This document shows, one piece after another, positions 1,680-36,918 of a DNA stretch of 42,653 bases. The stretch's first letter is position 1; every line of letters begins with the position of its first letter. The stretch is from the NCBI GenBank assembly GCA_029864465.1, contig JAOTTJ010000001.1, positions 1 to 42,653 on the forward strand, written 5' to 3'. The translations under genes were made by a program, and so were the position numbers. The notes beneath the pieces are model-generated. The model saw only the letters and a list, made by a program, of their open reading frames with translations. It searched no databases and was not told the origin of the DNA. The stretch comes from Gammaproteobacteria bacterium. Its GTDB lineage: Bacteria; Pseudomonadota; Gammaproteobacteria; Steroidobacterales; Rariloculaceae.

Positions 1680-2537
1680 TTGGCAAGGTTCCTCAAAGAC
1701 CCACTCGTGCATTTCGTGCTGCTCGGCGCGGCGATCTTCGGGCTTTTCGCCGTCCTCGAGGATGATCCCGGCGCCGATGAGCGGCGCATTGTCATCCCCG
1801 AGGCCGAGATCGACGGCCTGTGGGGGGCTATGTCGATGCTCTACGGCCGCGCGCCGACCGAGGACGATATCGAGCAGCTCATCGAGCCGCGGATCCGCGA
1901 GGAGGTGCTGTACCGCGAGGCACTCGCGCTCGGGCTCGACCGGGACGACTCTCAGGTGCGCCAGCGGCTCGTCGAGAAAATGACCTTCCTGAGCGAGGAT
2001 CTCATTCCGGCCGAGCCGCCGAGCGATGCGGAGATTGCAGCGTTCTTCGAGACCAATCGCGAGGCCTTCGTCGAGCCCACGCGCGTGGACTTCGAGCAGC
2101 TCTATTTCAGCCCGAGCGCTCATGGTGACGGCATCATGGCTGCCGCCGAGGCTGCGCTCGAGGCGCTGGCCGACGGCGCCAATCCCGATGCGCTCGGTGA
2201 CTCGAGCACGGTGCCGCGCGTGCGCGCAGCTGCATCGGCCGAGGAGCTCAGCGCCGATCTCGGCGAGGAGTACGCGGCGGGCGTGATTGCGCTGCCGGCC
2301 GATCAGGCCTGGCACGGGCCGATCCGCTCATTTTTCGGCGTGCATCTCGTGCGCGTCACGGCGCGCACCGAAGCCCGAACGCCAGCGCTCGAGGAAATTC
2401 GTGAGCGGGTGGTCTCGGCGCTGAATGCCGAGCGCCGCCGCAATGCGAACGAGCAGTCCTATCGAGAGCTGCGCGGACGCTACGACATCATCATCGAGCT
2501 ACCCGAGGCAGTCAGGGAGGCATGGCAGTCCGAATGA
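1680..2537 (+). CDS. Parvulin-like peptidyl-prolyl isomerase family protein (PpiC/Rotamase_2 type), N-terminally membrane anchored
   Basis: 285-aa ORF with a TTG start. N-terminal hydrophobic segment (PLVHFVLLGAAIFGLFAVL). C-terminal GPIRSFFGVHLVRVTAR...EEIRERV resembles the parvulin/rotamase fold of this family. Its stop overlaps the next gene. Confidence 0.6.
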   Translation: MARFLKDPLVHFVLLGAAIFGLFAVLEDDPGADERRIVIPEAEIDGLWGAMSMLYGRAPTEDDIEQLIEPRIREEVLYREALALGLDRDDSQVRQRLVEKMTFLSEDLIPAEPPSDAEIAAFFETNREAFVEPTRVDFEQLYFSPSAHGDGIMAAAEAALEALADGANPDALGDSSTVPRVRAAASAEELSADLGEEYAAGVIALPADQAWHGPIRSFFGVHLVRVTARTEARTPALEEIRERVVSALNAERRRNANEQSYRELRGRYDIIIELPEAVREAWQSE

Positions 2538-3523
2538 GATGGGTCGTGCTCGCGGCGCTCGCGCTCGGCGCGAGCGCCACGCAGGCGCATGAGTTCAGTC
2601 CGGGCTTTCTCGGCTTCACCGAGCTCGAAGCAGACGTCTACCGTGTGCAATGGAAGGTTTCGTTGACGGGAGGGCTGGCCGAAGGACTCCTGCCGCAGCT
2701 GCCGGACGAGTGCACATTCACGGGCGAGCTCAGCGCGTACGTCATGGGCGATGCGCGTGTACAGCAACGGGACGTGCGCTGCGATGGCGGTCTTGCGGGA
2801 CGCACCGTCAGTATCGATGGGCTGCCTTCGACGATGACGGACGTGCTTGTGCGTATCGATTATCTCGACGGCGGCTCAGTCACACATCTGCTGACGCCGG
2901 CGGCGCCTGGCGTCGTTATCGCCGAGGCGCAAGGTGCGCTCGCGGTCGTCGTCACTTACGTCGTGCTCGGCACGGAGCACATTCTGATCGGCATCGATCA
3001 CCTCCTTTTCGTGCTCGCACTGTTGCTGCTCGTCAATGGCGTACGCCGGCTCATCATCACGGTTACGGCGTTCACGCTCGCACACAGCATCACGCTCGGC
3101 GCGGCGACGCTGGGTTTGGTCGATGTTCCCCAGGCGCCGGTCGAAGCAGTTATCGCACTCAGCATTTTATTCCTCGCCGCCGAGCTTGGCCGAAAGGCAG
3201 TGGGCTACGGTGACTCACACGATATCGCGCTCGAGTTTCCGTGGGTCGTCGCGTTCCTGTTCGGCCTGCTGCACGGCTTCGGATTTGCCGGTGCGCTCGC
3301 CGATGTCGGCCTACCGCCGCAAGCTGTGCCGCTCGCGCTGCTGTTTTTCAACGTCGGCGTCGAAATCGGCCAGCTCATTTTCATATTCGCCGTGCTCGGC
3401 CTCGCCTGGGCCTGGCGCCGTGTGCGGCTTCCGGCGCCGCCGGTCTGGCGCGTAGCGGCGGCCTACGGGATGGGATCGGTCGCAGCATTCTGGGTGTTCG
3501 ACCGCACAATCGGCGCGATTTGA
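2522..3523 (+). CDS. HupE/UreJ-family (HupE_UreJ_2-like) membrane protein
   Basis: 333-aa ORF. Signal peptide ...ASATQA|HEFSPGF, followed by a periplasmic domain and about six hydrophobic helices (HILIGIDHLLFVLALLLL..., FLFGLLHGFGFAGAL, LLFFNVGVEIGQLIF). An alternative ATG at 2534 forms an ATGA overlap with the upstream stop (2535-2537). Confidence 0.7.
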   Translation: MAVRMRWVVLAALALGASATQAHEFSPGFLGFTELEADVYRVQWKVSLTGGLAEGLLPQLPDECTFTGELSAYVMGDARVQQRDVRCDGGLAGRTVSIDGLPSTMTDVLVRIDYLDGGSVTHLLTPAAPGVVIAEAQGALAVVVTYVVLGTEHILIGIDHLLFVLALLLLVNGVRRLIITVTAFTLAHSITLGAATLGLVDVPQAPVEAVIALSILFLAAELGRKAVGYGDSHDIALEFPWVVAFLFGLLHGFGFAGALADVGLPPQAVPLALLFFNVGVEIGQLIFIFAVLGLAWAWRRVRLPAPPVWRVAAAYGMGSVAAFWVFDRTIGAI

Positions 3524-6222: not shown

Positions 6223-7035
6223 ATGAACGTGATCGCGTTACTGGCGGCCCATCTCGTTGCGCTGCAGGGCCAGGCCGTGCAGCTCAGCCAGACGCACGAG
6301 CCGGGTCTGGAAGCCGTCGAGGTCCGTTGGAACGATCACACCATTCCTTACGTGCGCCGTGAGTCCGAATGGATTACGGTCGTCGGGATCGATCTCGACA
6401 CGCGGGCGGGGGCGTACCCCGCCGAGATCGAGCTCGAGTTTGCAGACGGCAGGACTGCGACGCGAACGGACACGATCGAGGTCCGTAGCAAGGAATTTCG
6501 CACGACAGAGCTCACGGTCGCGCCGGGTTACGTCGAGCTCAGCCCGGAGGATCAGGAACGCGCTGCGCGCGAGCGGCGCGAGATCGCGGCCGTTTACTCG
6601 AAATTAACGCCGACCGCGCATTGGTCTGAGCCATTCGCCGTGCCGATCCCGGGCGTCGAGGGTGGGCGCAATTTCGGCCACCGGCGTGTCTTCAACGGTC
6701 AGCCGCGCGCGCCGCATTCGGGCGCCGATCTTCGCGCGGCTACGGGCACCCAGATTCGTGCCGCGAATACCGGCACGGTCGTGCTGGCGAAAAATTTATT
6801 CTTCAGCGGCAACGCCGTGTTCGTTGATCACGGGCTCGGTGTCTTTTCGACGTATCTGCATCTATCCGAGATCAACGTCGACGTCGGTGATACGGTCGAG
6901 CGCGGTCAGGTTATCGGTCTGGCGGGCGCAACGGGTCGCGTCACGGGCCCGCATCTGCACTGGGGCGTACGCGTGCTCGATGCGCGCGTGGATCCGTTCT
7001 CGCTGTTGAGCCTCGATACGCCCGTGGTTCAGTGA
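6223..7035 (+). CDS. M23-family (LytM-type) metallopeptidase
   Basis: 270-aa ORF with a GAGGAGG Shine-Dalgarno sequence upstream. M23 zinc motifs are present: HSGAD (HxxxD), then VFVDHGLGVFSTYLHLSEI and TGPHLHWGV (HxH). Confidence 0.85.
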   Translation: MNVIALLAAHLVALQGQAVQLSQTHEPGLEAVEVRWNDHTIPYVRRESEWITVVGIDLDTRAGAYPAEIELEFADGRTATRTDTIEVRSKEFRTTELTVAPGYVELSPEDQERAARERREIAAVYSKLTPTAHWSEPFAVPIPGVEGGRNFGHRRVFNGQPRAPHSGADLRAATGTQIRAANTGTVVLAKNLFFSGNAVFVDHGLGVFSTYLHLSEINVDVGDTVERGQVIGLAGATGRVTGPHLHWGVRVLDARVDPFSLLSLDTPVVQ

Positions 7036-7104: not shown

Positions 7105-7719
7105 TTGGCATCCATGGTGATGGAGATCAGGCGCCGCTTTGCACGTATGGCCGGGGCCGCGATTGTGGCCGTCTCGGTATGGTCGTTGGCCGCTGTGAGC
7201 TCGGCTCAAGGTTGGATCGACTATGTCGATCTCGAGCAGCGATTTCGCATCAACCTGCCCCACGAGCCCGCCGTGGAGGATTCGGCCTTCCTCGGCGAGT
7301 ATGGCGACGAGCTACCGGTGCGGATCTATACGGCCTCGGATGGGATCAGCGACTACAAGGTCAGTGTGATCGACTACCGCAGCGCCGGCGTTACGGAGAA
7401 TCGCGCGTCGATCGCGTTCCAGGCCCTGCAATACCGGCGCCGGGGTGGTGAGGTTACGCACGATGCGTATGCCCAGATCGACCGGATCGAAGGCCATCAG
7501 CTGCAGATCACGAACCCTGATCAGAGTCGCACGTTCGTCGCGATCCACCTGCACCGCGGGCGCCTGTATGTCGTCGAGGCGAATGCGCCGCCGGGCGCGC
7601 CGCCGCCGGGGCTCGTCCAGCAGTCGCTCGTCATGCTCGATGAGTATGGTAATCACGTGCGCTACGAGCTCGATGCCGACGGCAACCGCGCGCGCGCGCG
7701 GACCGTCGAGGCGGATTGA
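7105..7719 (+). CDS. Hypothetical secreted protein
   Basis: 204-aa ORF. TTG start 5 nt after GGGGAG. Signal peptide (AAIVAVSVWSLAAVSSAQG). I recognise no family. Confidence 0.5.
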   Translation: MASMVMEIRRRFARMAGAAIVAVSVWSLAAVSSAQGWIDYVDLEQRFRINLPHEPAVEDSAFLGEYGDELPVRIYTASDGISDYKVSVIDYRSAGVTENRASIAFQALQYRRRGGEVTHDAYAQIDRIEGHQLQITNPDQSRTFVAIHLHRGRLYVVEANAPPGAPPPGLVQQSLVMLDEYGNHVRYELDADGNRARARTVEAD

Positions 7720-7840
7720 ACTGTGACAGGCGCAAGGGCTTCTCGTCTATCGATCGGCATTGTCCGCCGTTGTGCGAGGATCTATGCTCTTAGCGATGCG
7801 TGCGCAAGGTGAGCCGCTCTCGAACGAGGTCGTGAATAAC

Positions 7841-8212
7841 ATGCGATACACAGCCGTCAGTTTCATCGTCGCTTTCGTGCTCTCGCTGGCCGTGCCGGCG
7901 TCGGCGCATCACTCGCATGCGAACTACGCACAGCGAGACTGGGTCGAGCTCGAGGGCACCATCACGAACGTGCACTGGATGAATCCACACGTCTGGATCT
8001 ATCTCGAGGTCATGGGCGAGAGCGGCAAGCCCGTCGTCTGGGCGATGGAGGGCGGCAGCATCGCCGCGCTGACCGAGGGCGGCTGGCAGCCCGACAGCGT
8101 GCAGGTGGGCGATAAGATCTCGGCACGGTGCATGCCGCTCAAAGACGGTTCCTCGGGCTGTCTGCTCGGTTACCTGACGACCGACGAGCACGAAGACAAA
8201 GAGTTCGACTAA
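7841..8212 (+). CDS. Small exported HHS/W-x-NPH protein (DUF6152-like), copy 1 of 4
   Basis: Internal ATG at 7841 gives MRYTAVSFIVAFVLSLAVPASA|HHSHANYAQRDWVELEGTITNVHWMNPHVWIYLEV. This is a signal peptide followed by HHS and W-x-NPH motifs, both shared with 11081..11455, 26235.. and 35896... The DUF6152 assignment is from memory of that family's N-terminal pattern. Confidence 0.7.
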   Translation: MRYTAVSFIVAFVLSLAVPASAHHSHANYAQRDWVELEGTITNVHWMNPHVWIYLEVMGESGKPVVWAMEGGSIAALTEGGWQPDSVQVGDKISARCMPLKDGSSGCLLGYLTTDEHEDKEFD

Positions 8213-10079: not shown

Positions 10080-10419
10080 GCGGCAGCAATAGCAGCCGTG
10101 TTGTTCATGAATCGCCGTCGGCTGGTAGTCATCTTCCGCCTCCTCGGTGACGCCTATGGACTATAGCTTCAGAAAAGAGCCATTGGCATCGATCTCGACG
10201 ATACACACTTCTGATCAGTGGGATCTTCGCCCACAGCTATTGCGCGCCGCAGTCGGCTACTCTAGGCTAGTAGCGCTAGCGAGTTCATACACGTAGATCG
10301 GCGATAAGCCGGCGATCGCGTTAACCGAACATCAGCTTCGTGCTGGGGCTGGTCGGGGGAGGCGACTCATGCTGCGGGCAGTCACGACAAGCGTTGACGA
10401 CCGTACTCAATCAAGGTGC

Positions 10420-11070
10420 ATGACGGCGTGCAGCTCTCGCCGAGCCTTGATCATCATTAGTCTCGTCATGTTGGTCACTGTTCCCGCGGCGCAGAGCGCT
10501 TCGGATCTCAGCGGTGTCTGGTTATCGACGTCGCCGAGGGGCGGGGGCGGTGGGCCGAGGCCTGCGCTCACCCCGAGGGCGCAGGCGGATGCCGACGCGT
10601 TCGACCCGCTCGACGACCCCGTCATTCGCTGTGTACCACCCGGGTTCCCGAGAACGGGTGCCGGCGTCTATCCCTGGGAGATCGTCCAGACCGACGAGAT
10701 GATTCTGTTTCTCTACGAAGCATTCGGCATGGTTCGCCGCATCTATATGGATGGCAGGGAGCCTCCCGAATACTTTCCGCCGAGCCTCATGGGGTTCTCG
10801 GTCGGGCACTGGGAGGGCGATGATCTCGTGATCCGTACGACGCACTATGCGCCCTGGCTCCTGACCGGGTCGGGCGTCCGTCAGTACGGTGACATGGTCG
10901 TCGACGAGCGTTACCGGCTCGTGGATGACGGTCAGGCCCTCGAGGGTGAGGTGACAATCACGGCGCCGGAAACTTTTGAGGGACCGTGGACTCGAGAATA
11001 TACCTGGGAGCTGGATCCGGACGGCATGATCTTCGAAGCGATCTGCGATCCGGTCGACAGCCGGTTCTAG
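10420..11070 (+). CDS. Secreted uncharacterised protein ('B-domain'), stand-alone homologue of the C-terminal halves of 26235..27281 and 35896..36918
   Basis: ATG at 10420 preceded by AAGGTG. Signal peptide MTACSSRRALIIISLVMLVTVPAAQSA. Motifs shared with the fused paralogues: SGVW..., DDPVIRCVPPGFP, GFSVGHWEGDDLVI and a C-terminal Cys (EAICDP). Confidence 0.65.
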   Translation: MTACSSRRALIIISLVMLVTVPAAQSASDLSGVWLSTSPRGGGGGPRPALTPRAQADADAFDPLDDPVIRCVPPGFPRTGAGVYPWEIVQTDEMILFLYEAFGMVRRIYMDGREPPEYFPPSLMGFSVGHWEGDDLVIRTTHYAPWLLTGSGVRQYGDMVVDERYRLVDDGQALEGEVTITAPETFEGPWTREYTWELDPDGMIFEAICDPVDSRF

Positions 11071-11080
11071 CGGGGGCGGT

Positions 11081-11455
11081 ATGCGAGTCGGGATAATCGG
11101 TTTCGTCCTGAGCCTGACGGCCTTCATGGCGCAGAACGCGTCTGGGCATCACTCGTTCACCGCGCTATTCGATCCGTCGCGGACCGTAGAGATTGCGGGC
11201 ATCGTCACCGAGTTTCAGTTCCGGGCGCCTCATTGCTACATTCGTCTCGACGCCGCGGGCAGTGACGGAGTGCGGATCGAGTGGGAGCTCGAGACGACGT
11301 CTCCGGGGCAGCTCATCCGTATCGGCTTGACGCCGGAAAACTTGAAACCAGGGGATCGAATCTCAGCGATCGGTAACCCGACCCGCGACGGACGACCCTT
11401 GATGCGCCTGTTGACGATTACGATGCCAGGTGGAGAGGAAATCGAGATCCAGTAG
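11081..11455 (+). CDS. Small exported HHS/x-x-PH protein (DUF6152-like), copy 2 of 4
   Basis: 124 aa. MRVGIIGFVLSLTAFMAQNASG|HHSFTALFDPSRTVEIAGIVTEFQFRAPHCYIRL. It starts 10 nt after the preceding stop, with GGGGGCGG upstream. Confidence 0.7.
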   Translation: MRVGIIGFVLSLTAFMAQNASGHHSFTALFDPSRTVEIAGIVTEFQFRAPHCYIRLDAAGSDGVRIEWELETTSPGQLIRIGLTPENLKPGDRISAIGNPTRDGRPLMRLLTITMPGGEEIEIQ

Positions 11456-11507
11456 AAGGATACAAGCCGTCGGGCGACACGCCCGACTACAACGAAAGGG
11501 GGAGTTC

Positions 11508-13919
11508 ATGAAGCGCAAGAGTGATCTATTACGCGGCTCATTGAAGGCGGTGCTCGGACTGGTTTCCGTAGCCATGCCGGGACTGTCTTTGGCCCAAGCG
11601 CTAGAGGAGATCGTCGTGACCGCGGAAAGGCGCGAGACGCTTCTCCAAGACACACCGATCTCGGTGCTGGCCTTCGATACCGATACGCTGGACGCGGCCG
11701 GTATCGACGACATCGAGTATCTGCAGAATATCTCGCCGGGCCTGAAGATCACCGGTAGCCGTGGTAACCAGAACAGACCTATCTTCCGCATTCGCGCGAT
11801 CGGTAACACGGGCGGCTCGGGCCCGACGGGCGACCGCGGTGTCGGTCTGTATATCGATGACATCTATTACCCCCGCAGCACCGGCTCGCTGCTGCAAACG
11901 CTCGACGTCCAGCGTATCGAGGTGCTGCGCGGACCCCAGGGCACGTTGTTCGGACGGAACAATGCCGGGGGCGCCATACGCTACATCACCAATCGCCCGC
12001 ATGAGGAGACCGAGTTTCAAGTCAAGGCAACGATGGGCGAGTTCAGCCGCGCCGATATCGACCTCCTCTACAATGCGCCGATCAGTGACCGCGTGTTCTT
12101 TCGAGGTCAGATTTCCTCGCTGAACAGGGACGGCTACGTTCAGCGCGGCGACGTGGACCTCAGCAACGTGGATGCTCAGGTCATCCGGGGGCAGCTTCGG
12201 TTCGCGCCGTCCGACGACGTCACGGTCGATCTCGGGCTCATGTTGACCAAAGACGAGTCCAATGGCCGCGCAGGCTCGATCATCAATCAACAGGGAAGCA
12301 CGGGCTCAGGGGAATGGGGCATCGTTCAGCGGGCGATCATCGCCACAGATCCGACGCAACCGCCGTTCGGCGATGATGACCCGCGGTTGATCCTCGACGA
12401 TTTCACGCTACCGAACTACTGCCTGTTGGACGGCGATGGTGATCCATTCACGCGGCTGTCGCGCGCCGAGGCGCTGGCCGGCGGCTTCGCGTTCCTATCG
12501 GATTGCTCGATCGCAACCAAAGAGGAGATGAGCCTCGCGAGTCTCGATATAAATTGGAATATCTCCGACTCCATGTCCTTCCGATCTTTAACCGGCATTC
12601 TCGGCATCGAGGCCTTTGTGCCGGCGGATTGGGCGTATTCGGGCGGCTTCATCTCGGAGTCCGTCGAAGACACGGACGGCTGGTCGCAGGAGTTCCAGCT
12701 CTCGGGGTCGATCGACGATCGCGTCGACTGGACAGCAGGGGTGTACCTGTTTCACGAGGACGGTACGGAGTTTCGGCCGCGGCTCGACATACTCGATACG
12801 GGCGGAAACCTCAGGACGAGTGTCGAGCGCAACGAGAGCCGATTCATCGACACCGACAGTCTGGGCCTCTACGGTCAATTGACCTGGTACATCAATGACG
12901 CTTTCTCGCTAACCGCGGGCGTGCGTCGTACCGAGGACGATAAGGCCAACACGATCAACTGGTCGGAGGTCAGATCTGGCACTTTCCTCCCGTTCTCCGG
13001 ACTGTCGTTGCCGACCGAAGCGAGCTTCAGCTCGAACGACTACCGGTTGACGCTCGACTATGACATCAACGACGACGTCATGGTGTTCATCACAGCATCG
13101 ACGGGATTCCAGGCCGGCCAGTTCAATGACACTGTCAACACGGGAGTCTGGTTCGACGATGTGGCGGACGGCGGCAATGGTGATGGGATCGCGCAGATCA
13201 GCGAGTGCATCGACGCGTGCCGTGAGTCCGTCCGGCCTCAGGAGATCGAGAATCTCGAAATCGGCATTCGTGCGCAATGGCTCGAGAACCGCTTGCGGAC
13301 CAATCTGACGGTCTACGATATGGACATCACGGATCTGCAGACCGGTGGCCGTGTGCAGATCGTCGAGCCGGACGGAACGCTGACGACGATCACCCGATCA
13401 GTCAACGCCGGCGCTGCAAAGGTGCGCGGCTGGGAAGCCGAGATTCAGGCGGGGATTACGGATAACCTGACGCTGAACTTCGCAGCGGCGAAGTACAGCC
13501 AGGCAGAGATCACCGAGCTACCTCCGCCCGAGGTCATCGCGGATAGTAATCTCGTGCTGGGCGAGCGCCTTGCGGACACGCCGGACCTGGCCTACACGCT
13601 TTCGCTGAATCACGCTATTTCGCTGAGTAACGGCGGCGGCCTCGATACGACGGTCGGCTACAGCTTTTCCGACGATTTCACGACGAATCAATCGCTCCCC
13701 GATGCGATCACCGTGCCCGACGTCGGTATCGTCAGTGCGCGCATCAGGTATACGGAGCCGGAAGGCCGTTGGGCCGTGAGTCTGTCCGGAACGAATCTTG
13801 CGGATGAGGTCTACTCACACGGCGGGCAGCATTACGCGGGTGCGCGCGGCCAGGTCGGCGTCGCTTTCATGGCGCGGCCACGCGCGCTCGCGCTCGGCTT
13901 CGAGTACTACAGCCGATAG
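11508..13919 (+). CDS. TonB-dependent receptor
   Basis: ATG at 11508 after AAAGGGGGAG. Signal peptide (AVLGLVSVAMPGLSLAQA). Plug motifs EEIVVTAERRETLLQDTPISV and IEVLRGPQGTLFGRNNAGGAIRYI. A long beta-barrel region follows, with the typical FSLTAGVRRTEDD segment. Confidence 0.9.
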   Translation: MKRKSDLLRGSLKAVLGLVSVAMPGLSLAQALEEIVVTAERRETLLQDTPISVLAFDTDTLDAAGIDDIEYLQNISPGLKITGSRGNQNRPIFRIRAIGNTGGSGPTGDRGVGLYIDDIYYPRSTGSLLQTLDVQRIEVLRGPQGTLFGRNNAGGAIRYITNRPHEETEFQVKATMGEFSRADIDLLYNAPISDRVFFRGQISSLNRDGYVQRGDVDLSNVDAQVIRGQLRFAPSDDVTVDLGLMLTKDESNGRAGSIINQQGSTGSGEWGIVQRAIIATDPTQPPFGDDDPRLILDDFTLPNYCLLDGDGDPFTRLSRAEALAGGFAFLSDCSIATKEEMSLASLDINWNISDSMSFRSLTGILGIEAFVPADWAYSGGFISESVEDTDGWSQEFQLSGSIDDRVDWTAGVYLFHEDGTEFRPRLDILDTGGNLRTSVERNESRFIDTDSLGLYGQLTWYINDAFSLTAGVRRTEDDKANTINWSEVRSGTFLPFSGLSLPTEASFSSNDYRLTLDYDINDDVMVFITASTGFQAGQFNDTVNTGVWFDDVADGGNGDGIAQISECIDACRESVRPQEIENLEIGIRAQWLENRLRTNLTVYDMDITDLQTGGRVQIVEPDGTLTTITRSVNAGAAKVRGWEAEIQAGITDNLTLNFAAAKYSQAEITELPPPEVIADSNLVLGERLADTPDLAYTLSLNHAISLSNGGGLDTTVGYSFSDDFTTNQSLPDAITVPDVGIVSARIRYTEPEGRWAVSLSGTNLADEVYSHGGQHYAGARGQVGVAFMARPRALALGFEYYSR

Positions 13920-19879: not shown

Positions 19880-21355
19880 CTACGGGGTCTCGTACTCGAC
19901 CTCGTCCGCGTCGATAGCCGTGTCCGCGACTTCCGTACCTTGAACTTTCACGAGCTCGCCATCGGGTGGGCGAGCGAAGAACGCTACCGAGCCGATTGAC
20001 GCATCGGTCTCGTCGCGGAAATCCATGTCCAACACGTTATCCGTGTCGATCGTGACGCCGAGGATCGTCATCGACGTCCCGGCGACGGTCTCGACGATGC
20101 CTTGCAGGATCGTGTCGTCGGTCATCCCGACTTCGCGCTCGAGCCGTGCTGCGAGCACCTCGCCGGGCGCATTCGGGGCTTCGCTGCCGCGGACCGCAAT
20201 GAAGTCACCCGCGACAATGTTGCCCAGACCGAATGGCTCGACATCATCACGTTTGTCCTCGATGCGTGTCAGGCTGTCGACGTGAATCGTGATACCGAGC
20301 ACGGTCACGGTGCCGGCACTCGGAGGGGAATCCACGAGTCCCTCGATTTCCACGACGCTGTCGCGGCGAATGTCGACCTTATCGGCGACGAGCACGCCGG
20401 CCGAGTTTAGATCGCCCTCGACCTCGACCTTGACGTTGAGAGCGAGGTCATTCGCACTGGCGATACCGATAGGCTCGAAGACCGTCTGATTGTTCGTCGT
20501 GACGGGGTATCCCGAGACGTCGAAGTCTGTCGCGTCGTTGAAGCGTGTGATCAAGCCCTCGATCTCGACGTGATCGTCGGCGTTGCCGGCGATCTGGGCG
20601 CCCTTGAACTCGACCTCGGTCGCTGTCAGCGTATTGCTCGCGATTTCGAAGTCTATGCCCTTGGCCTCGACGAGATCGCCGTCGTCGATATCGCCGCCCG
20701 GGAAGTTGCGGATGCTACCCGCCGTCGAGTAATCCACGACGAGCCCGTTGATCATGAACGTCATCGCGCCGGAGAGGTGACCTTCGACGATGCCCGTAAC
20801 TTCGAACTCATCGCCCGGTAACAGATTCTTGAGTTCGATACGTGTTGCGAGAATGTCGCCGTCGGAGTTGACGAAGCCGGATACCTCGACGACGTCAGTC
20901 ACAGCGAGGCCATCGATCGAGGCCGGCACTATCGAGTCGTCGAAAGACGTATCTGCTGTGATGCGCACGGTTTGGCCGAGGACGATGAGCGTCGATGCGT
21001 CCGGTTTGGCGCTGATCGGCCCTTCGACGTTGTCGTTGAACGTGACTGAGGCGGCCGTGCCGGTCGTTCGGGACGCTGCAAGCGTGCCCTCGATCAGCAC
21101 GACGTCGCCGACCTCGAGCTCAGCTTCGGTGCCCGGCGAGTCGTCAATCGTGAACGTCGCCGTGCTCGTGTCGTAACGCACGCCGTTGACGATGATGCTG
21201 CCGAAGCCCGAAATCGAGCCGTACGCGAACGCAGCGCTCGGGCTGCCCGTTCGATCGATGCCTGCAACGGTGGGACCTGAGGTACCGCCGCACGCCGCAA
21301 CTAGTACGGCCGCGCCGATGACGCTAACTATCTGTAGTGATGTATGCGGTTTCAT
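19880..21355 (-). CDS. Lipoprotein made of about six tandem DUF5666-type modules, copy 1
   Basis: 491 aa. Lipobox LVAACGG. Repeated pattern [VI]EG.I........[ILV].V.G..[VI]......T.F.D, for example GFGSIIVNGVRYDTS. It is collinear and highly similar over its whole length to 22317..23786. Confidence 0.8.
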   Translation of the reverse strand: MKPHTSLQIVSVIGAAVLVAACGGTSGPTVAGIDRTGSPSAAFAYGSISGFGSIIVNGVRYDTSTATFTIDDSPGTEAELEVGDVVLIEGTLAASRTTGTAASVTFNDNVEGPISAKPDASTLIVLGQTVRITADTSFDDSIVPASIDGLAVTDVVEVSGFVNSDGDILATRIELKNLLPGDEFEVTGIVEGHLSGAMTFMINGLVVDYSTAGSIRNFPGGDIDDGDLVEAKGIDFEIASNTLTATEVEFKGAQIAGNADDHVEIEGLITRFNDATDFDVSGYPVTTNNQTVFEPIGIASANDLALNVKVEVEGDLNSAGVLVADKVDIRRDSVVEIEGLVDSPPSAGTVTVLGITIHVDSLTRIEDKRDDVEPFGLGNIVAGDFIAVRGSEAPNAPGEVLAARLEREVGMTDDTILQGIVETVAGTSMTILGVTIDTDNVLDMDFRDETDASIGSVAFFARPPDGELVKVQGTEVADTAIDADEVEYETP

Positions 21356-21361
21356 GGCTTT

Positions 21362-22171
21362 CTACCTTTTGGTTTCATCGTGTATCAGATAGACGCCGGC
21401 CCCGAGACGGACGCTCTCTGACGTAGAAGATTCGGTTTCGTTGACTTGATGTTCGGACAGCCAGGCGTCGATCTCTTCGAGAAAGGCCTGGCCGCGGGTG
21501 TCGAGATATTTTCGGAAATCTTCGAGGTGACTTCGGGCAACACGCGGGTTCGAGGCCATGCCTTCGAACCGCGGTGGCTCCGTACGCTCGCTGTCAACGT
21601 TGTGCGCGAGCGTCATACCGTGGTCGTGCAGCGCCACGCCGACCTGACGCAGCATGTCGGGATCGAGCGGGCTGCGGATGTACTCGCGCGCGCGCACCTC
21701 GTATACGCTCGGCTCGACCTCGGCAATGAGCTCGAGCTTCAGCAACTCCTTGGTCAGCGCGCCGTGCGGCGTGTCGCCCGCGTAACGTTTTAGCAGGGTT
21801 GCGAGGCTTGCGCCGTTGCCATCGGCCGGAAGCCTAGCGGGGTGTCCGCCAGCATTAAGAAAATCGGTATCGAGATGCCAGCCCGAAAGTACTTGCGCGA
21901 TACTGCTGCCCGCGGGCTGTTTCGGATCCTCGACCCCGGCCAGCGTTTTGCGTACGCGGGTGACCTCGCGCCGGCTCAAGCCCGTAATCATGGCTACGCG
22001 CGAGGCATTCGTCGGACGCCCCTGTAGCCCATAATCTCGTCCGGCGACAGCGACATAGACCTCTTTGCCGAGCTCGGCAAACTCCGCCCATGTGATGCCG
22101 CTGCGCTGCAGCAGGCGCACGACGGGGACGAGCAGGTGGCGACAGGCCTTGAGTAGCGCGGTTTTGGTCAT
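21362..22171 (-). CDS. HTH-containing regulator-like protein (DUF6502-like), intact copy
   Basis: 269 aa, ending 6 nt upstream of the DUF5666 start. The N-terminal LLVPVVRLLQRSGITWAEFAELGKEVYVAVA...TNASRVAMITGLSRREVTRVRKTL looks like a helix-turn-helix. The DUF6502 assignment is from memory. Confidence 0.55.
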   Translation of the reverse strand: MTKTALLKACRHLLVPVVRLLQRSGITWAEFAELGKEVYVAVAGRDYGLQGRPTNASRVAMITGLSRREVTRVRKTLAGVEDPKQPAGSSIAQVLSGWHLDTDFLNAGGHPARLPADGNGASLATLLKRYAGDTPHGALTKELLKLELIAEVEPSVYEVRAREYIRSPLDPDMLRQVGVALHDHGMTLAHNVDSERTEPPRFEGMASNPRVARSHLEDFRKYLDTRGQAFLEEIDAWLSEHQVNETESSTSESVRLGAGVYLIHDETKR

Positions 22172-22316: not shown

Positions 22317-23786
22317 CTACGGGGTCTCGAACTCGACTTCGATGGCGGCGATGTCCGTCACGCCCACCTCCGTGCCTTTGGCCTTGACGACCAGGCCATC
22401 CGGTGGGCGACCGAAGAATCCGGCCGAGCCGATTGGCATATCGTTCTCGTCCTCGAAGTTCTGGTCCGTCACGCCGCTCGTGTCGATTCTGACGCCGAGG
22501 ATCGTGATCACGGGCTCCGCTACCGACTCGACGATGCCCTGCAGAATCGTGTCGTCGGGATCGTCGCGTTCGAGCCGGGCTGCGAGCACCTCGCCGGGGG
22601 CGTTCGGGTCTTCGCTGCCGCGCACGGCGATGAAGTCGCCTACGACGATGTTACCCAGGCCGAACGTCTGCATGTCGTCACGCTTGTCCTCGATGCGCGT
22701 CAGGTTGTCGACGTGAATCGTGATACCGAGCACGGTTACGGTACCGGCACTCGGGTCTAAATCCACGAATCCCTCGATCTCCACGACGCTGTCGCGGCGG
22801 ATATCGACTTTGTCCGCGACGAGCACGCGGTTAGCGTTAAATCTGCCTTCGACCTCGACCTTGACGTTGAGGCCGAGGATATTGACGTCGCCTTCGAACA
22901 GGGCATTGCGAGCATCGACCGTGATGCCAGAGACGTCGAAATCGTCCTGGGAGCCGAAGCGCGTGATCAGACCCTCGATCTCGGCGTGGTCGTCGGCGTC
23001 ACCGGCTAGCCCGGCTAGCTGATCGTCCTCGAAGTCGACCTCGGTCGCGACGAACTCGCCGAGTCCGTTGATGGTCAGACCTTTTGCCTCGACGAGGTCG
23101 CCATCGGTGATGACGCCACCCGGGAAGTCGTTGTCGAGCATGGCTGCTGAATAGTTGACGACGAGCGCGTTGATCATGAACGTCATCGCACCCGGGACGT
23201 GGCCTTCGACGATGCCCGTAACTTCGAACTCATCGCCCGGTCCCGGATTCTTAAGCTCTATACGCGTCGCGAGAATATCGCCGATGGAGTCGACGAAACC
23301 GGATACCTCGACGATGTCGGTAACGGCGAGGCCATCGATCGACCTCGGAACGATCGAGTCGTCGAAAGACGTATCTGCCGTGATGTGCACGGTTTGGCCG
23401 AGGACGATAAGCGTTGTGGCGTCCGGGATGGCGCTGATCGGCCCTTCGACGTTGTCGTTGAACGTGACCGAGATCGCCGTGCCAGTCGTTCCGGATGACG
23501 AAACCGTGCCATCGATAATCACGACGTCGCCGACCTCCAGATCGTCTTCTGTACCCGGTGAGTCGTCGATCGAGAACGAAGCCGAGCTCGTGTCGTAACG
23601 TACGCCGTTGACGATGATGCTCCCGAATCCCGAAATCGCACCGAACGCGACCGCGGATTCCGGAGGAACCGCACCGACATTCGGGGTGTTGGAGCTCGCG
23701 CCGCCGCCGGAGCTGCCACCGCAAGCTGCTGTGAGTGCAGCGGCGCAGACCAGAGTGAAAAATTGAAGAGCTGTTCGTGCGTTCAT
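22317..23786 (-). CDS. Lipoprotein made of about six tandem DUF5666-type modules, copy 2
   Basis: 489 aa. Lipobox LTAACGG. It shares long identical stretches with copy 1, for example ISGFGSIIVNGVRYDTS, SVTFNDNVEGPISA, TLIVLGQTV.ITADTSFDDSIVP.SIDGLAVTD and VLVADKVDIRRDSVVEIEG. Confidence 0.8.
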   Translation of the reverse strand: MNARTALQFFTLVCAAALTAACGGSSGGGASSNTPNVGAVPPESAVAFGAISGFGSIIVNGVRYDTSSASFSIDDSPGTEDDLEVGDVVIIDGTVSSSGTTGTAISVTFNDNVEGPISAIPDATTLIVLGQTVHITADTSFDDSIVPRSIDGLAVTDIVEVSGFVDSIGDILATRIELKNPGPGDEFEVTGIVEGHVPGAMTFMINALVVNYSAAMLDNDFPGGVITDGDLVEAKGLTINGLGEFVATEVDFEDDQLAGLAGDADDHAEIEGLITRFGSQDDFDVSGITVDARNALFEGDVNILGLNVKVEVEGRFNANRVLVADKVDIRRDSVVEIEGFVDLDPSAGTVTVLGITIHVDNLTRIEDKRDDMQTFGLGNIVVGDFIAVRGSEDPNAPGEVLAARLERDDPDDTILQGIVESVAEPVITILGVRIDTSGVTDQNFEDENDMPIGSAGFFGRPPDGLVVKAKGTEVGVTDIAAIEVEFETP

Positions 23787-24130: not shown

Positions 24131-26020
24131 ATGTCGGGTTATGTCAAAACGGGCCGAGAACTCGTGCTAGCAGGCTGCCTTGCAGCGCTACTCGCCGGCT
24201 GCGGATCGCCCGACACTGAACCCGTTGGAGCTGCCGATACGGTCGCGTCAACGAACGATGCGGACATCATTGTCGTTGGTGCGGGACTGGCTGGTCTCTC
24301 GGCCGCGATCGACGCGGCGAGCGGCGGCGCGCGCGTGCTCGTCATCGATATGAACTCAGTCTTCGGCGGTCACGGCATTCAGTCCGGCGGTGTCGCGTTC
24401 ATCAACTCGACGATGCAAGAAGAGCTCGGTTACGAAGACGACCCCGCCGTCGCCTATGCGGACTGGATGGAATGGACCGTTGACGGGCATGCGCAGTGGA
24501 ACCGTTTCTACGTCGAGAACTCGCGCGAGATGCTCTGGGATTGGCTCACGGGACTCGGCGTTCGCTTCGACCGGATCCGGCCCTCGCATGGCAACAGCGT
24601 GCCGCGCTTCCACATGACCCACCGGCGGGGGTTGAATCTCACCCGGCCGATTTTTCTCGAGGCGCTGCGTTACTCGAATATCGATTTCCGCTGGAACGCC
24701 GTCGCCGATCATCTGACCAAGGACGGCGACCGCGTCGTCGGCGTCGAAGGTCTCGACTACCGAACGGGCTCGCGCTTCGCTCTCCGCGGCGAGACAGTCA
24801 TCCTCGCGACGGGCGGCTTTCAGAGCAACATCGATATGGTCAGGGCCAACTGGCGCGATGACCTGCCGGCACCGGGGCCGGTCTACAGCATGTCCGGACA
24901 GAACTCGCGTGGCAGCGGTCATCGCATGGCCGAGGAAGCCGGCGCGGCGCTCGTCAACCTCGATCGCCAGTACAACGGTTACACGATTGTTCCCGACATG
25001 TTCGGTCTGGACGAAGCCCGCGGCTACTACGGCGGAAACGCCCGCTCGATCTGGGTGAACTCGGCGGGCGAGCGTTTCGTCACAGAGCTCGGTATCGACC
25101 GCTACGTGTTCGACGCCGTCATGCGCCAGCAACCCGAGGGCCATTGGTCGATTTACGATTTCGACGACAAGGACGGCTTCCGGCTCAACGGGCCGCACTT
25201 TGTCTCGGCCGACGCCGTCGACCACGAGAAGATCCAGCGCCTCGCCGTCGAGAACCCGGACATCACGCAAAAGGCCGATACGCTCGCCGAGCTTGCGGCG
25301 CTCATCGGCGTGCCGCCCGATTCGCTCGAGGCGACAGTCGCGCATTACAACGCACTTGTGGCGAACGGTGAGAGCACGGACGTCGACGGCCTGCCGCCCG
25401 AGGACACGCCGCCGGTGTTCACGATCGACACACCGCCGTACTACGCGACGAAGCTCTACCCGATGGCGAACAAGAGCGCCGGCGGTGTCTCGATCGATAT
25501 GCGAACCCATGCGCTCGATGCGTCGGGCACCCCTGTGCCGGGCCTGTACGCAGCCGGCGAAATCACTGGCTCGGCCGGCATGAACGGGCTCAACGGTCTC
25601 GACGGCATGTTCACGGGACCGTCGATTCTGACAGGGCGCGTGGCGGGTCGGACGGCCGCGGCCGAGCTCGCCGAGATTGCGGGCTGGGAACCCGTCGAGT
25701 TCACGCGGCGCGGCGCGGACTGGGATATGACGCGACCGGCCGATTCGTCATGGACACCCGCGCTCGGACCTGCCGACGTGCAGAACATGCTTGCCGACAG
25801 CCGCGACGGTTACTGGCATTTCGAGCGCGTGCACAATCTCGTGCTCGAACGCGGTTACGGGTGTACAAACTGCCACTCGGAACGCGTGCCGTTCTATACG
25901 GCGCTCTCGCGCGAGGACAAAGCCATGCAGACGCAGATCTGCGAGACCTGCCATCTCGCACCAGCCGGCACGCTGCCGGGCGCCGACGTGCAGCGCACGC
26001 CTGCTCGTGTTAGCAACTGA
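24131..26020 (+). CDS. Lipoprotein FAD-dependent oxidoreductase (fumarate-reductase/KstD-type FAD_binding_2 fold) with a C-terminal diheme c-type extension
   Basis: 629 aa. Lipobox LLAGCGS. Dinucleotide fold DIIVVGAGLAGLSAAIDAASGGARVLVID. C-terminal FAD motif GLYAAGEITGS. The ~110-aa tail carries CTNCH (25862-25876) and CETCH (25940-25954). Confidence 0.75.
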   Translation: MSGYVKTGRELVLAGCLAALLAGCGSPDTEPVGAADTVASTNDADIIVVGAGLAGLSAAIDAASGGARVLVIDMNSVFGGHGIQSGGVAFINSTMQEELGYEDDPAVAYADWMEWTVDGHAQWNRFYVENSREMLWDWLTGLGVRFDRIRPSHGNSVPRFHMTHRRGLNLTRPIFLEALRYSNIDFRWNAVADHLTKDGDRVVGVEGLDYRTGSRFALRGETVILATGGFQSNIDMVRANWRDDLPAPGPVYSMSGQNSRGSGHRMAEEAGAALVNLDRQYNGYTIVPDMFGLDEARGYYGGNARSIWVNSAGERFVTELGIDRYVFDAVMRQQPEGHWSIYDFDDKDGFRLNGPHFVSADAVDHEKIQRLAVENPDITQKADTLAELAALIGVPPDSLEATVAHYNALVANGESTDVDGLPPEDTPPVFTIDTPPYYATKLYPMANKSAGGVSIDMRTHALDASGTPVPGLYAAGEITGSAGMNGLNGLDGMFTGPSILTGRVAGRTAAAELAEIAGWEPVEFTRRGADWDMTRPADSSWTPALGPADVQNMLADSRDGYWHFERVHNLVLERGYGCTNCHSERVPFYTALSREDKAMQTQICETCHLAPAGTLPGADVQRTPARVSN

Positions 26021-26234: not shown

Positions 26235-27281
26235 ATGCAGAAATCGAGAAACCGAACGGCAATGCCGGTCCGTGCCGTCCTAGTGCTAACGCTTGCGATG
26301 ACGACGTCGATATTCGCTCACCATTCCGGGATCGAGTACGACCGCTCGATGCTCGTCGAGCTCGAAGGCGAGGCGCGGACGGTTCACTGGCGCAATCCTC
26401 ACATCCTCATCGAACTCGCTACGACCGATGCAAGCGGTCGAGAAGTCGTCTGGAGTGTCGAGGGTGCGGCCCTCAGCAATCAGCGCCGTCGCGGCGTCAT
26501 GGAGGGCATGCTCCAGGAAGGTGATCAGGTACGCGTGGCTGGATATTCCTCGACACGCCGCCCCGCGCACATGACGGCCGAGCACATTCTGCTACCGAGC
26601 GGCACGGAGCTGCTCGTCGGCTCGGCGCGCGAGCCCCTCTGGTCCGAGGATCAGGTCGGCGGCAGCGCCCAGACCCCGACCACAGCAGCCGCAGCCGCGC
26701 CCACGGGCAGCGGAATCTTCCGTGTCTGGACGCGTGCCGGTGGCTACTGGCCGTGGTATTTCACGGAGCCGCAGGAGTACGAGCTCACGGAATGGGCCGC
26801 GGCGCACGTAGCCGAATACGATACGTTCGAGGACAATCCGCTGCTCGACTGCACGCAGCCGGGTATGCCTTCCGTCATGGGCAACCCCTACCCGATGGAA
26901 TTCATCGACCACGGCGACACAATCGAGTTGCGCTTCGAGGAGTTCGACGTCGTGCGTACGATTCACATGAACGATGCGCGTAACCCAGCCAACGTACCGT
27001 TGTCTCCACTTGGCCATTCGGTCGGGCGCTGGGAGGGCGATACGCTCGTCGTCACGACGAGCCGGATCAACTGGCCGTACTACGGGCGCATGGGCCTTCC
27101 GCAAACCGAGTCGGTACACGTCACCGAGCGGTTCACGCTCGTCGCCGCTGAGAACCGTATCGATTATGAAATTACGAACCGGGACCCCGAGGTTTTTGCG
27201 GGCACCGAGACCTGGTCGGCCCCCTATGTCTGGCGCCCGGGCGAGGAAGTCGGCGTCTACGCCTGCACCGTCGCAGAGTAG
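26235..27281 (+). CDS. Exported fusion protein: DUF6152-like HHS/W-x-NPH module (copy 3) + B-domain
   Basis: ATG at 26235, 5 nt after GAGGAG. ...TSIFA|HHSGIEYDRSMLVELEGEARTVHWRNPHILIEL. The C-terminal half (GIFRVW..., NPLLDCTQPGMP, GHSVGRWEGDTLVV, VYACT) is homologous to 10420..11070. Confidence 0.7.
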   Translation: MQKSRNRTAMPVRAVLVLTLAMTTSIFAHHSGIEYDRSMLVELEGEARTVHWRNPHILIELATTDASGREVVWSVEGAALSNQRRRGVMEGMLQEGDQVRVAGYSSTRRPAHMTAEHILLPSGTELLVGSAREPLWSEDQVGGSAQTPTTAAAAAPTGSGIFRVWTRAGGYWPWYFTEPQEYELTEWAAAHVAEYDTFEDNPLLDCTQPGMPSVMGNPYPMEFIDHGDTIELRFEEFDVVRTIHMNDARNPANVPLSPLGHSVGRWEGDTLVVTTSRINWPYYGRMGLPQTESVHVTERFTLVAAENRIDYEITNRDPEVFAGTETWSAPYVWRPGEEVGVYACTVAE

Positions 27282-35895: not shown

Positions 35896-36918
35896 ATGCG
35901 GATTCAAGAGCTCGGTATCTTGCTAACGTTCGCCGCTGCGCCGGCACTCGCTCATCATAGCGTTGTGGCTAATTTCGATGCGGGAACGACAGTAGAAGCC
36001 GAGGGCGTAATCAGCAACATTGCGTGGAGGAACCCTCATATCCTGTTCACGCTGACGACCGCCGACGGCGCTGAGTTGACGCTCGATACGCACTCTTTGA
36101 GCATCATGCGTCGATTGGGCGCGGCCGAGCCATTCATCCACGTAGGTGACTCCGTCAAGGTCGCCGGCTGGCCGTCGCGGCGAGGTGAGGGAATGTTCGT
36201 TAACAACATGCTGCTGCCCAGCGGAGAAGAGTTCGTTTTCGATTTCAGCGCAGAGCCCGCAGATCTTCGTTGGTCAGACCGGATGTGGGGAAGCAATGAG
36301 AATTGGTTTGCCGAAGGCGGCGACTCCTCGGCGGAAGAGCGCGGAATTTTCCGCGTCTGGAGCACAACGCTCGCGGGTGGTGGCGCTTTTTTCTTTCAGC
36401 AGCGAGCCTATCCGCTCACTGAGGCAGCGCAAGCATTCAACGATGCATTCGATATCACCACTGAAGACCCGTTGTTCAACTGTGCCCCGAAGGGTGTGCC
36501 GGCCATCATGAATGCACCTTATCCGTTCGAGTTCAGCGATCGGGGTGACATTATCGAGCTGCGTATCGAGGAATACGACACGTTGCGTACCATTTATTTG
36601 AATCCAGAGACGGCCGCTGCATCATCACCGTCGATTCTCGGGCACTCAACGGGTCACTGGGACGGCGAGACACTCGTTGTCGAAACCACGAATGTGAACT
36701 GGGGGCATCTCAACGGTCGCGGGGTGCCCATGAGCGAACAGGCTGTGATCGTCGAGCGGTTTACGCCTACGGAGAACGGCGGACGGCTCGAATATGAGCT
36801 GACGGTCACCGATCCAAGGAACTTCACCGAGCCTGTCGTCATGGGGAAATCGTGGGTCTGGTTACCCGACGTTCGCGTCGAGCCGTACGAGTGCACGCTT
36901 CGCGAGGAACTTGGATAG
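35896..36918 (+). CDS. Exported fusion protein: DUF6152-like HHS/W-x-NPH module (copy 4) + B-domain
   Basis: ATG at 35896, 6 nt after GAGG. MRIQELGILLTFAAAPALA|HHSVVANFDAGTTVEAEGVISNIAWRNPHILFTL. The C-terminal half (GIFRVW..., DPLFNCAPKGVP, GHSTGHWDGETLVV, PYECT) is homologous to 10420..11070 and to the 26235 fusion. Confidence 0.7.
   Translation: MRIQELGILLTFAAAPALAHHSVVANFDAGTTVEAEGVISNIAWRNPHILFTLTTADGAELTLDTHSLSIMRRLGAAEPFIHVGDSVKVAGWPSRRGEGMFVNNMLLPSGEEFVFDFSAEPADLRWSDRMWGSNENWFAEGGDSSAEERGIFRVWSTTLAGGGAFFFQQRAYPLTEAAQAFNDAFDITTEDPLFNCAPKGVPAIMNAPYPFEFSDRGDIIELRIEEYDTLRTIYLNPETAAASSPSILGHSTGHWDGETLVVETTNVNWGHLNGRGVPMSEQAVIVERFTPTENGGRLEYELTVTDPRNFTEPVVMGKSWVWLPDVRVEPYECTLREELG

Follow-up and report, generated by a model that had tools for sequence, protein, structure and literature searches.

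We analysed a window of 42,653 nucleotides (the whole of positions 1 to 42,653, forward strand, of contig JAOTTJ010000001.1 in assembly GCA_029864465.1, from a gammaproteobacterium of the Rariloculaceae) in which three adjacent genes code for a small exported protein with a domain that we call B (gene 1), a small exported protein of the DUF6152 family, domain D (gene 2), and a TonB-dependent receptor, TBDR (gene 3). The B and DUF6152 domains are clearly partners, and the B-D module that they make up is real, very widespread and uncharacterised; membership of a known family is established in two cases alone, that of DUF6152 and that of the TonB-dependent receptor superfamily. The same window is contained in the 92.9-kb metagenome contig ena:ERZ27296398:k141_1200050 (L001).

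Partnership of the B and DUF6152 domains

The original prediction, pointing to two genes elsewhere in the window in which both small domains are fused into one polypeptide, held that the two act together. This is borne out by the fusions, by same-strand adjacency, by tight intergenic gaps and by co-divergence. Both fused genes are real and carry DUF6152 at the N-terminus, with C-terminal halves that share 36% identity with gene 1 (E = 1e-22 and 9e-26); what had been overlooked is a fourth, stand-alone DUF6152 gene, and the window content is three B and four D domains in 42 kb (Table 1). Homologues of fused paralogue 1 number more than 2,000, nearly all of them 340-355 aa long and bearing PF19649.

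Gene neighbourhoods were surveyed at 85 loci chosen via B, 80 from species-representative genomes together with contigs carrying orthologues. A same-strand DUF6152 was present within 1 kb of 82 of the 169 B domains at these loci, fused to B in 20 cases and split from it in 62; the split pairs occurred in both orders, 37 as D-B and 25 as B-D. Seen from the other side, B lay within 1 kb of 81 of the 88 DUF6152 domains, a proportion biased by the selection of loci through B. The intergenic gap was between -4 and +11 nt in all nine split orthologue pairs, and these nine pairs co-diverge, with identities of 63-76% for B and 53-77% for D.

Fused proteins had the order D then B throughout (20/20 in the loci, 82/82 in the library of homologues): the 149 library representatives comprised 82 D-B fusions, 14 B-B proteins and not a single B-D fusion. 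A D-first order is to be expected if the first mature residue of DUF6152, His1, is functional, because it would need a free amino group.

Re-reading of the sequence returned the three same-strand genes with the spacers originally given, 10 nt (11070 to 11081) and 52 nt (11455 to 11508). It also returned the other features ascribed to each gene: signal peptides were read in all three products, and a purine-rich stretch, as expected of a ribosome-binding site, was found before every start (GGGGGAGG before 10369 and AAGGTG before 10420 for the two possible starts of gene 1, GGGGGCGG before 11081 for gene 2 and GAAAGGGGGAG before 11508 for gene 3). The start of gene 1 had been placed at 10420; it is more likely to be 10369, because public gene calls use this position and the upstream regions of orthologues align an ATG there. 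A simple scan of the + strand detected no terminator-like or promoter-like sites between genes 1-3, which is compatible with an operon without requiring one, and we infer that the three genes are co-transcribed.

Table 1. Features of the three-gene cassette and of related copies in the window (a slash marks predicted signal-peptide cleavage)
Feature	Coordinates	Strand	Length	Remarks
Gene 1, 'B-domain' protein	10369..11070 (alternative start 10420)	+	233 aa (216 aa from 10420)	ORF (open reading frame), translation
Gene 2, DUF6152	11081..11455	+	124 aa	PF19649 match
Gene 2, HHS codons	11147..11155	+		Predicted mature N-terminus; candidate N-terminal-His metal ligands
Gene 2, Pro-His of [N/A]PH (FRAPH)	11228..11233	+		Candidate third metal ligand; OB-fold beta1-beta2 turn
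Gene 3, TBDR	11508..13919	+	803 aa	Plug and barrel Pfam matches
Gene 3, TonB-box-like EEIVVTA	11604..11624	+		Sequence reading
Fused paralogue 1	26235..27281	+	348 aa	Signal peptide, DUF6152, linker, B
Fused paralogue 1, HHS	26319..26327	+		After signal peptide
Fused paralogue 1, B-domain	about 26712..27278	+		Gene 1 similarity
Fused paralogue 2	35896..36918	+	340 aa	Signal peptide ...ALA, then HHS (35953..35961), DUF6152, B
Fused paralogue 2, B-domain	about 36343..36915	+		Gene 1 similarity
Fourth DUF6152 gene, stand-alone	7784..8212	+	142 aa	...ASA/HHSHANY...WMNPH

Candidate metal site and barrel-like partner

Gene 2 matched PF19649 (DUF6152) with E = 2e-23 and 82.7 bits (cut-off 27). The other copies in the window matched the same model, with 97.9 bits for the stand-alone fourth copy (scored as 7760..8212; E = 3.6e-28), 60.5 bits for fused paralogue 1 (E = 1.8e-16) and 42.4 bits for fused paralogue 2 (E = 7.5e-11). 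The signal peptide of gene 2 ends ...NASG and the predicted mature protein starts His-His-Ser, in agreement with the earlier reading of HHSF after an ASG cleavage. Signal-peptide cleavage of DUF6152 proteins was predicted from the sequence pattern alone; by this prediction all four copies in the window have His-His at the mature N-terminus. In 84 of the 88 DUF6152 domains of the surveyed loci an A-x-A-type cleavage site led straight into HH[S/G/A/T] (60 HHS, 15 HHG, 8 HHA and 1 HHT), two further domains having HN[A/G], and HH[S/A/G/T] was found in 76 of the 82 D-B proteins of the library. In an alignment of 68 fused proteins H29, H30, S31, W52, N54, P55 and H56 were all invariant. The last of these histidines belongs to an [N/A]PH motif, about 27 residues past His1, that is visible in all sequences of the 88-domain listing; its form is APH in the gene 2 subfamily and W-x-N-P-H in the 68 fused proteins.

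An AlphaFold2 (AF2) model of fused paralogue 1, built from the 68-sequence alignment, had pLDDT 83.4 and pTM 0.76 and showed two domains, the linker between them (about residues 140-160) being of low confidence. The D-domain was modelled as a five-strand OB fold, which Foldseek matched to SSB, the LysRS N-domain and PriB with probability up to 1.0. In the same model the third invariant His, that of [N/A]PH, is located in the turn between strands beta1 and beta2.

We found no match of gene 1 to Pfam or NCBIfam models (for the mature part, even at E<=5), B has neither a Pfam model nor a literature, and profile searches against PDB gave no sequence relative; the original prediction had likewise assigned no function to the protein. 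Its close homologues, more than 190 at 60-83% identity, are all labelled 'hypothetical', while the B domain at large matches 12,547 clusters defined at 50% identity, with at least 589 B loci in species-representative genomes (Acidobacteriota, Gammaproteobacteria, Sphingomonadales, Gemmatimonadota and others). The motifs read from gene 1 at the outset, CVPPGFP, GFSVGHWEGDDLVI and a C-terminal Cys, proved to be conserved: the positions invariant in 79 B sequences include two Cys, YP, E, R, GxSxG and E. One invariant Cys is within the CxPxGxP loop and the other near the C-terminus; for an exported protein (the Sec signal peptide of gene 1 ends at about AQS/AS, near 10498) a disulphide would be the simplest reading.

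The AF2 model of mature gene 1 (79-sequence alignment; pLDDT 90.3, pTM 0.87) has a GVW-bearing first strand, two helices and eight further strands. Its best Foldseek matches were CRABP2, CRBP1/2 and FABP6 (probability 1.0, E 1.5e-3), and intracellular lipid-binding proteins (iLBPs) were the sole matches of B at this high probability. Superposition on iLBPs gave TMq 0.41-0.47 and TMt 0.54-0.64, values on either side of the TM of 0.5 that a shared fold should exceed, with a root-mean-square deviation (rmsd) of 6-7 Å and identity of 11-14%. B therefore models as a FABP/calycin-like barrel, by analogy of fold rather than by family membership. What the model has in common with iLBPs (FABP, CRABP, CRBP; calycin superfamily) is the succession of a strand, a helix pair and antiparallel strands, with GxW in the first strand; unlike them, B is about 50 residues longer, is exported, has two invariant Cys and shows no profile-level sequence relation in PDB.

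Acidobacterial B proteins without DUF6152 (L012-L079, e.g. L041 1203..4308) are found in tandem arrays and share, ahead of the GVW strand, the mature N-terminal peptide QW[LI]NYPTPGIPRT.DGKPNL.APAP.T.DGKP. The peptide, in its shorter consensus QW.NYPT.G.PR..DGKPNL, takes the place of D, and these proteins seem to make up a separate subfamily.

Franco Cairo et al. (2025, PMC12537917) showed that secreted metal-binding proteins can be recognised by a conserved His that signal-peptide cleavage leaves at the N-terminus. DUF6152 has, with cleavage predicted, a conserved His as first mature residue, and the invariant mature His-His suggests a metal site in this family. The guess in the original prediction that a metal is involved gains support from this invariance, from which metal binding itself would follow as an inference. 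We found no literature on DUF6152/PF19649, nor any that combined histidine brace, OB-fold and periplasmic; PDB has no sequence relatives of either small protein, and neither belongs to an experimentally characterised family.

DUF6152 is outside the four families characterised by the above study (PMC12537917). Among these, DUF4198 (IsDUF4198, PDB 9GCB) binds Ni with a Kd of 18 nM, has TonB receptors among its gene neighbours and was assigned metal binding/transport rather than catalysis; DUF6702 was described as a metal sequesterase; Ang-1 and Ang-2, with His1 100% conserved, bind Cu and are attached to HupE/UreJ-2 permeases (PMC12537917). Like DUF6152, DUF4198 is exported and has an N-terminal His after cleavage, TonB receptor neighbours and a second conserved His nearby, for which the His of [N/A]PH is the candidate in DUF6152. 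However, DUF4198 is a 13-strand beta-sandwich, whereas DUF6152 is modelled as a five-strand OB fold, and the two have no sequence relationship (the Pfam scan yields PF19649 alone). In DUF6152, but not in DUF4198, two His follow each other at the N-terminus and a FABP-like domain is the dedicated partner, and no NikR or ABC transporter neighbours were seen around B/D. The anglerase domains Ang-1/Ang-2 and the (mono)histidine-brace copper proteins of the CopC/YcnI type also have a free N-terminal His, a metal chelator, in the cell envelope, as is predicted for DUF6152, in which 86 of 88 domains have His1; they are Ig-like or cupredoxin-like sandwiches tethered to or partnered with an inner-membrane permease, whereas DUF6152 would be a soluble OB fold with a barrel-domain partner. 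DUF4198, DUF6702, Ang-1/2, CopC and YcnI are the closest known kinds: the principle is common to all, while the folds differ and none has a barrel partner.

Two periplasmic metal proteins invite comparison on other grounds. CusF is the OB-fold Cu(I)/Ag(I) metallochaperone of CusCFBA, with a His/Met/Met site that is capped by Trp and is not N-terminal. DUF6152 would resemble it as a small periplasmic OB fold and proposed metal carrier with His and Trp near the putative site. Nevertheless, we rejected a CusF-like assignment: there was no conserved Met pair in the invariant or near-invariant columns of the 68 sequences, and CusF was not in the top 50 Foldseek matches; unlike CusF, DUF6152 has no RND efflux genes nearby. 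ZinT/YodA, a partner of ZnuA, is a calycin-like protein for zinc whose N-terminus is rich in His. The module would share with it a lipocalin-like barrel, an N-terminal His cluster, periplasmic location and a link to metal uptake (here inferred), but in ZinT the His-rich tail and the barrel form one domain, whereas here His-His is on a separate OB domain; unlike ZinT, the module has no znu genes nearby, and ZinT was not in the top 50 Foldseek matches.

Adjacent receptor genes

Gene 3 was said to encode a complete TBDR, and it does: Plug (E = 2e-11) and the TonB_dep_Rec barrel (E = 1.4e-39) were both matched above cut-offs. The signal peptide ...SLAQA is followed by EEIVVTA, which resembles the TonB-box consensus, and there is no N-terminal signalling (STN) domain. 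Assignment to the siderophore-receptor class was rejected, since TIGR01783 reached 93.9 bits, its cut-off being 223.5, and every equivalog model fell far short of its own; the receptor was assigned to no substrate class. Neither is either small protein likely to be a TBDR-associated surface lipoprotein of the SusD, TbpB or BtuG type, as no lipobox Cys is conserved at the cleavage region in gene 1, gene 2 or their homologues (alignment and sequences).

Orthologues of gene 3 form four clusters at 84% identity or above, after which the next match drops to 38%. All four clusters adjoin B; they are represented by the window and by the loci L084, L088/L117 and L123. The gene order is B-D-TBDR at L088, L117 and L123, and B, a deleted D and TBDR at L084. 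The latter locus, an orthologue with 79% identity, has lost D by a natural deletion: at 6700..6830 some 37 nt of the gene are left, its first codons being joined to the pre-receptor region, and an insertion sequence (DDE_Tnp_1) is located immediately upstream of B. A metagenome scan from the receptor side found one close orthologue with B-D, and at 27 loci of distant gene 3 relatives it found no B or D.

Outside this lineage, the gene 1 orthologues examined (62-76% identity) are mostly without an adjacent receptor. At L005 a receptor is 3.8 kb away; the receptor at L087 is non-orthologous, divergently transcribed and 22-35% identical to gene 3.

For the family as a whole, receptors were detected by jackhmmer. 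Of the 85 loci, 11 (~13%) had a TBDR-like ORF no more than 1 kb from B or D, two false calls at L064, which were really B ORFs, having been excluded. The density of TBDR-like ORFs was 5.3 per 100 kb within 1 kb of B/D and 1.2-2.2 per 100 kb at 1-8 kb, a roughly 3-fold enrichment (12 observed vs 3.6 expected, Poisson p 3.5e-4; p about 0.004, by estimate, with the 10 that are left after dropping the two false calls). TBDR-like barrels were the commonest immediate same-strand neighbour, though they accounted for 9 of 123 such neighbours, which span 133 Pfam families. At L011, from the cultured Aurantiacibacter odishensis KCTC 23981, D and B overlap by 8 nt and a TBDR is located 2.6 kb from the pair. 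As the receptors adjoining B or D at L032, L040, L067 and L087 are not orthologous to gene 3 and the adjacent receptors belong to different subfamilies, TBDRs seem to have been recruited independently several times.

The original interpretation is supported in part: linkage of the small proteins to a receptor holds for all four gene 3 orthologue clusters, but a general partnership with TBDRs has weak support, and most B-D orthologues outside this lineage have no receptor next to them. A 'B + DUF6152 + TBDR system' is limited to one narrow lineage, with a modest enrichment elsewhere.

Proposed mechanism, alternatives and neighbouring genes

The reading that we prefer, tentatively and with less than even confidence, is a periplasmic metal- or ligand-handling B-D module that here serves the adjacent receptor. 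Genes 1 and 2 would each encode one half of a periplasmic two-domain module, which in many bacteria is one polypeptide chain, and B and D, whether fused or translationally coupled, would work as one. Signal-peptidase cleavage of the gene 2 product would expose His-His as a free N-terminus; His1 and His2, probably with the His of [N/A]PH, may then form an N-terminal-His, histidine-brace-like site for Cu, Ni or Zn. The gene 1 barrel, presumably disulphide-stapled, would have a cavity that accommodates a small ligand. The cassette of this lineage would be co-transcribed with a dedicated TBDR, and the module would most plausibly interact with the receptor in the periplasm and take over its cargo, a metal ion or metal chelate.

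Several observations weigh against this proposal. There is no DUF6152 near 87 of the 169 B domains, or about half, the large acidobacterial subfamily included; B therefore has no need of D. L084 has kept B and the receptor with D deleted. At L085, L086, L116, L118 and L119, all loci of gene 1 orthologues, no receptor is adjacent. In PDB comparisons gene 3 resembles siderophore receptors (FyuA, FetA, FpvA, PhuR) in the plug alone, and B is weakly similar to FABPs (E about 1.5e-3, rmsd 6-7 Å). Further, in the 85 loci neither genes of metal homeostasis nor metal-responsive regulators nor inner-membrane transporters are conserved nearby, the window has no Fur-box-like site (up to 3 mismatches), and no inverted repeat was found upstream of gene 1. 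The upstream regions of gene 1 orthologues have no common motif.

Neighbouring genes bear on the alternatives. Neighbour surveys were based on all ORFs, as a GC-frame gene caller had mis-called gene 1 and was dropped. The 1,884 ORFs within 4 kb of B/D in the 85 loci revealed no conserved operon partner, no family being present in more than 10 loci. Recurrent neighbours were exported hydrolases and oxidoreductases: metallo-beta-lactamase fold proteins, amidohydrolases, sulfatases, NHL propellers, pyrroloquinoline quinone (PQQ) dehydrogenases, cytochromes c and a FAD_binding_2 flavocytochrome; GSDH and dienelactone hydrolase were also among the neighbours. PQQ dehydrogenases, although they made up the top neighbour cluster, were rejected as a specific partner because they are not enriched near B/D in comparison with the outer flanks.

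Neighbours that are chiefly exported hydrolases and oxidoreductases would suit a periplasmic metalloenzyme, in which a histidine-brace-like copper centre acts, by oxidation or some other transformation, on a small substrate, hydrophobic or a carboxylate, inside the barrel, the receptors at most supplying substrate and the paralogues reflecting different substrates. The canonical histidine brace is catalytic in lytic polysaccharide monooxygenases (LPMOs); the family has undergone strong expansion, up to six or more copies per locus, as the three B and four D copies here illustrate; and the invariant polar residues of B (Y, E, R, E) could be catalytic. We nonetheless consider an enzyme rather unlikely. 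The absence of PQQ dehydrogenase enrichment speaks against it, and the 133 families among 123 immediate neighbours include no single conserved redox partner; B-only and B-B proteins have no putative metal domain at all; and the four N-terminal-His families of Franco Cairo et al. gave weak oxidase/peroxidase activity and were assigned metal binding/transport (PMC12537917).

A more ambitious proposal, combining both themes and in our opinion unlikely, is that DUF6152 is a new structural class of histidine-brace-type centre, an OB fold with the free His-His and the His of [N/A]PH as ligands, to which an obligatory partner, a hitherto uncatalogued family of FABP-like barrels with at least 12,500 clusters at 50% identity, presents a small-molecule substrate or metallophore, so that the pair, as a widespread periplasmic system, strips metal from TonB-imported chelates or oxidises imported organics. 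To our knowledge, there is no system that pairs an OB-fold histidine-brace centre with a FABP-like barrel.

The case for a His-based metal site would serve equally well for a periplasmic Cu, Ni or Zn buffer, or a chaperone for exported metalloenzymes, with no part in uptake and with TBDR adjacency mechanistically meaningless. Most orthologues are indeed without a receptor, many neighbours are exported metalloenzymes (metallo-beta-lactamase fold proteins, amidohydrolases, PQQ enzymes), and a multicopper oxidase and a HupE/UreJ_2 permease with an N-terminal His are encoded a few kb upstream on the contig. We regard this as improbable: it leaves unexplained the FABP-like barrel partner as well as the 3-fold local enrichment and repeated independent recruitment of TBDR-like genes, and no copper/zinc resistance or regulator genes are conserved nearby.

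There is an equally slim chance that B is a FABP-like periplasmic shuttle carrying poorly soluble organic nutrients from outer-membrane importers to periplasmic enzymes or inner-membrane transporters, with DUF6152 as an OB-fold accessory for docking or regulation, its His residues having a structural role and binding no metal. In structure B comes closest to intracellular lipid-binding proteins; it is found by itself, in tandem and in large paralogous arrays, which is to be expected of binding proteins with varied specificity; the hosts are TBDR-rich heterotrophs (Acidobacteriota, Sphingomonadales, Steroidobacteraceae, marine Gammaproteobacteria), and TBDR-like genes are the top neighbours; yet the structural match of B to FABP is weak, and a purely structural role would explain neither the D-first fusion order nor why almost every copy has His-His at the precise point of cleavage.

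Other genes of the region are described here for completeness. The permease gene mentioned above, 2522..3523 (+), encodes a HupE/UreJ_2 protein (PF13795, residues 146-301) with a signal peptide ...ATQA/HEFSPGF; the first residue of the mature product is His, an extracytoplasmic domain of ~120 aa comes next, and the gene is syntenic in L117. This is the same architecture as that of the copper/nickel Ang-1 anglerase-HupE/UreJ-2 proteins (PMC12537917). The multicopper oxidase gene, with Cu-oxidase domains, is just past the window's left end on the same contig (L001 1..511).

Upstream of the fourth DUF6152 gene, 7114..7719 (+) encodes an unrelated secreted protein of 201 aa. It was rejected as a divergent B (BLASTP E = 0.38, hhalign probability 0.5%, no Pfam match), and DUF6152 may therefore have another type of partner, unrelated to B. 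The gene immediately preceding fused paralogue 1, 24131..26020 (+), codes for a FAD_binding_2 protein of 629 aa whose C-terminal stretch resembles cytochrome c7. The arrangement of the FAD_binding_2 gene and the fused paralogue is syntenic in L120, and a FAD_binding_2 gene is also near fused D-B in L086; a 56%-identical orthologue of 24131..26020 is found instead between a VasI-like gene and genes for a thiamine pyrophosphate (TPP) enzyme and cytochrome c. A gene for a ~491-aa protein without Pfam match also stands beside fused D-B genes in two orthologue loci (L086 8254..10510 and L087 8165..9640).

Two genes, 19880..21355 (-) and 22317..23786 (-), code for ~490-aa proteins of 4-5 DUF5666 repeats and flank a DUF6502 gene, 21362..22171 (-); this DUF5666-DUF6502-DUF5666 trio is syntenic in L120. 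Base composition is even across the region and thus gives no hint of a genomic island.

With regard to the family, the invariant His-His at the signal-peptidase site and the strict D-first order turn an anonymous DUF into a concrete hypothesis of metal binding. If it is true, an OB-fold member would join the small set of folds known for N-terminal-His metalloproteins, and a new periplasmic step, downstream of outer-membrane import, would be added to the physiology of environmentally dominant, TBDR-rich heterotrophs.

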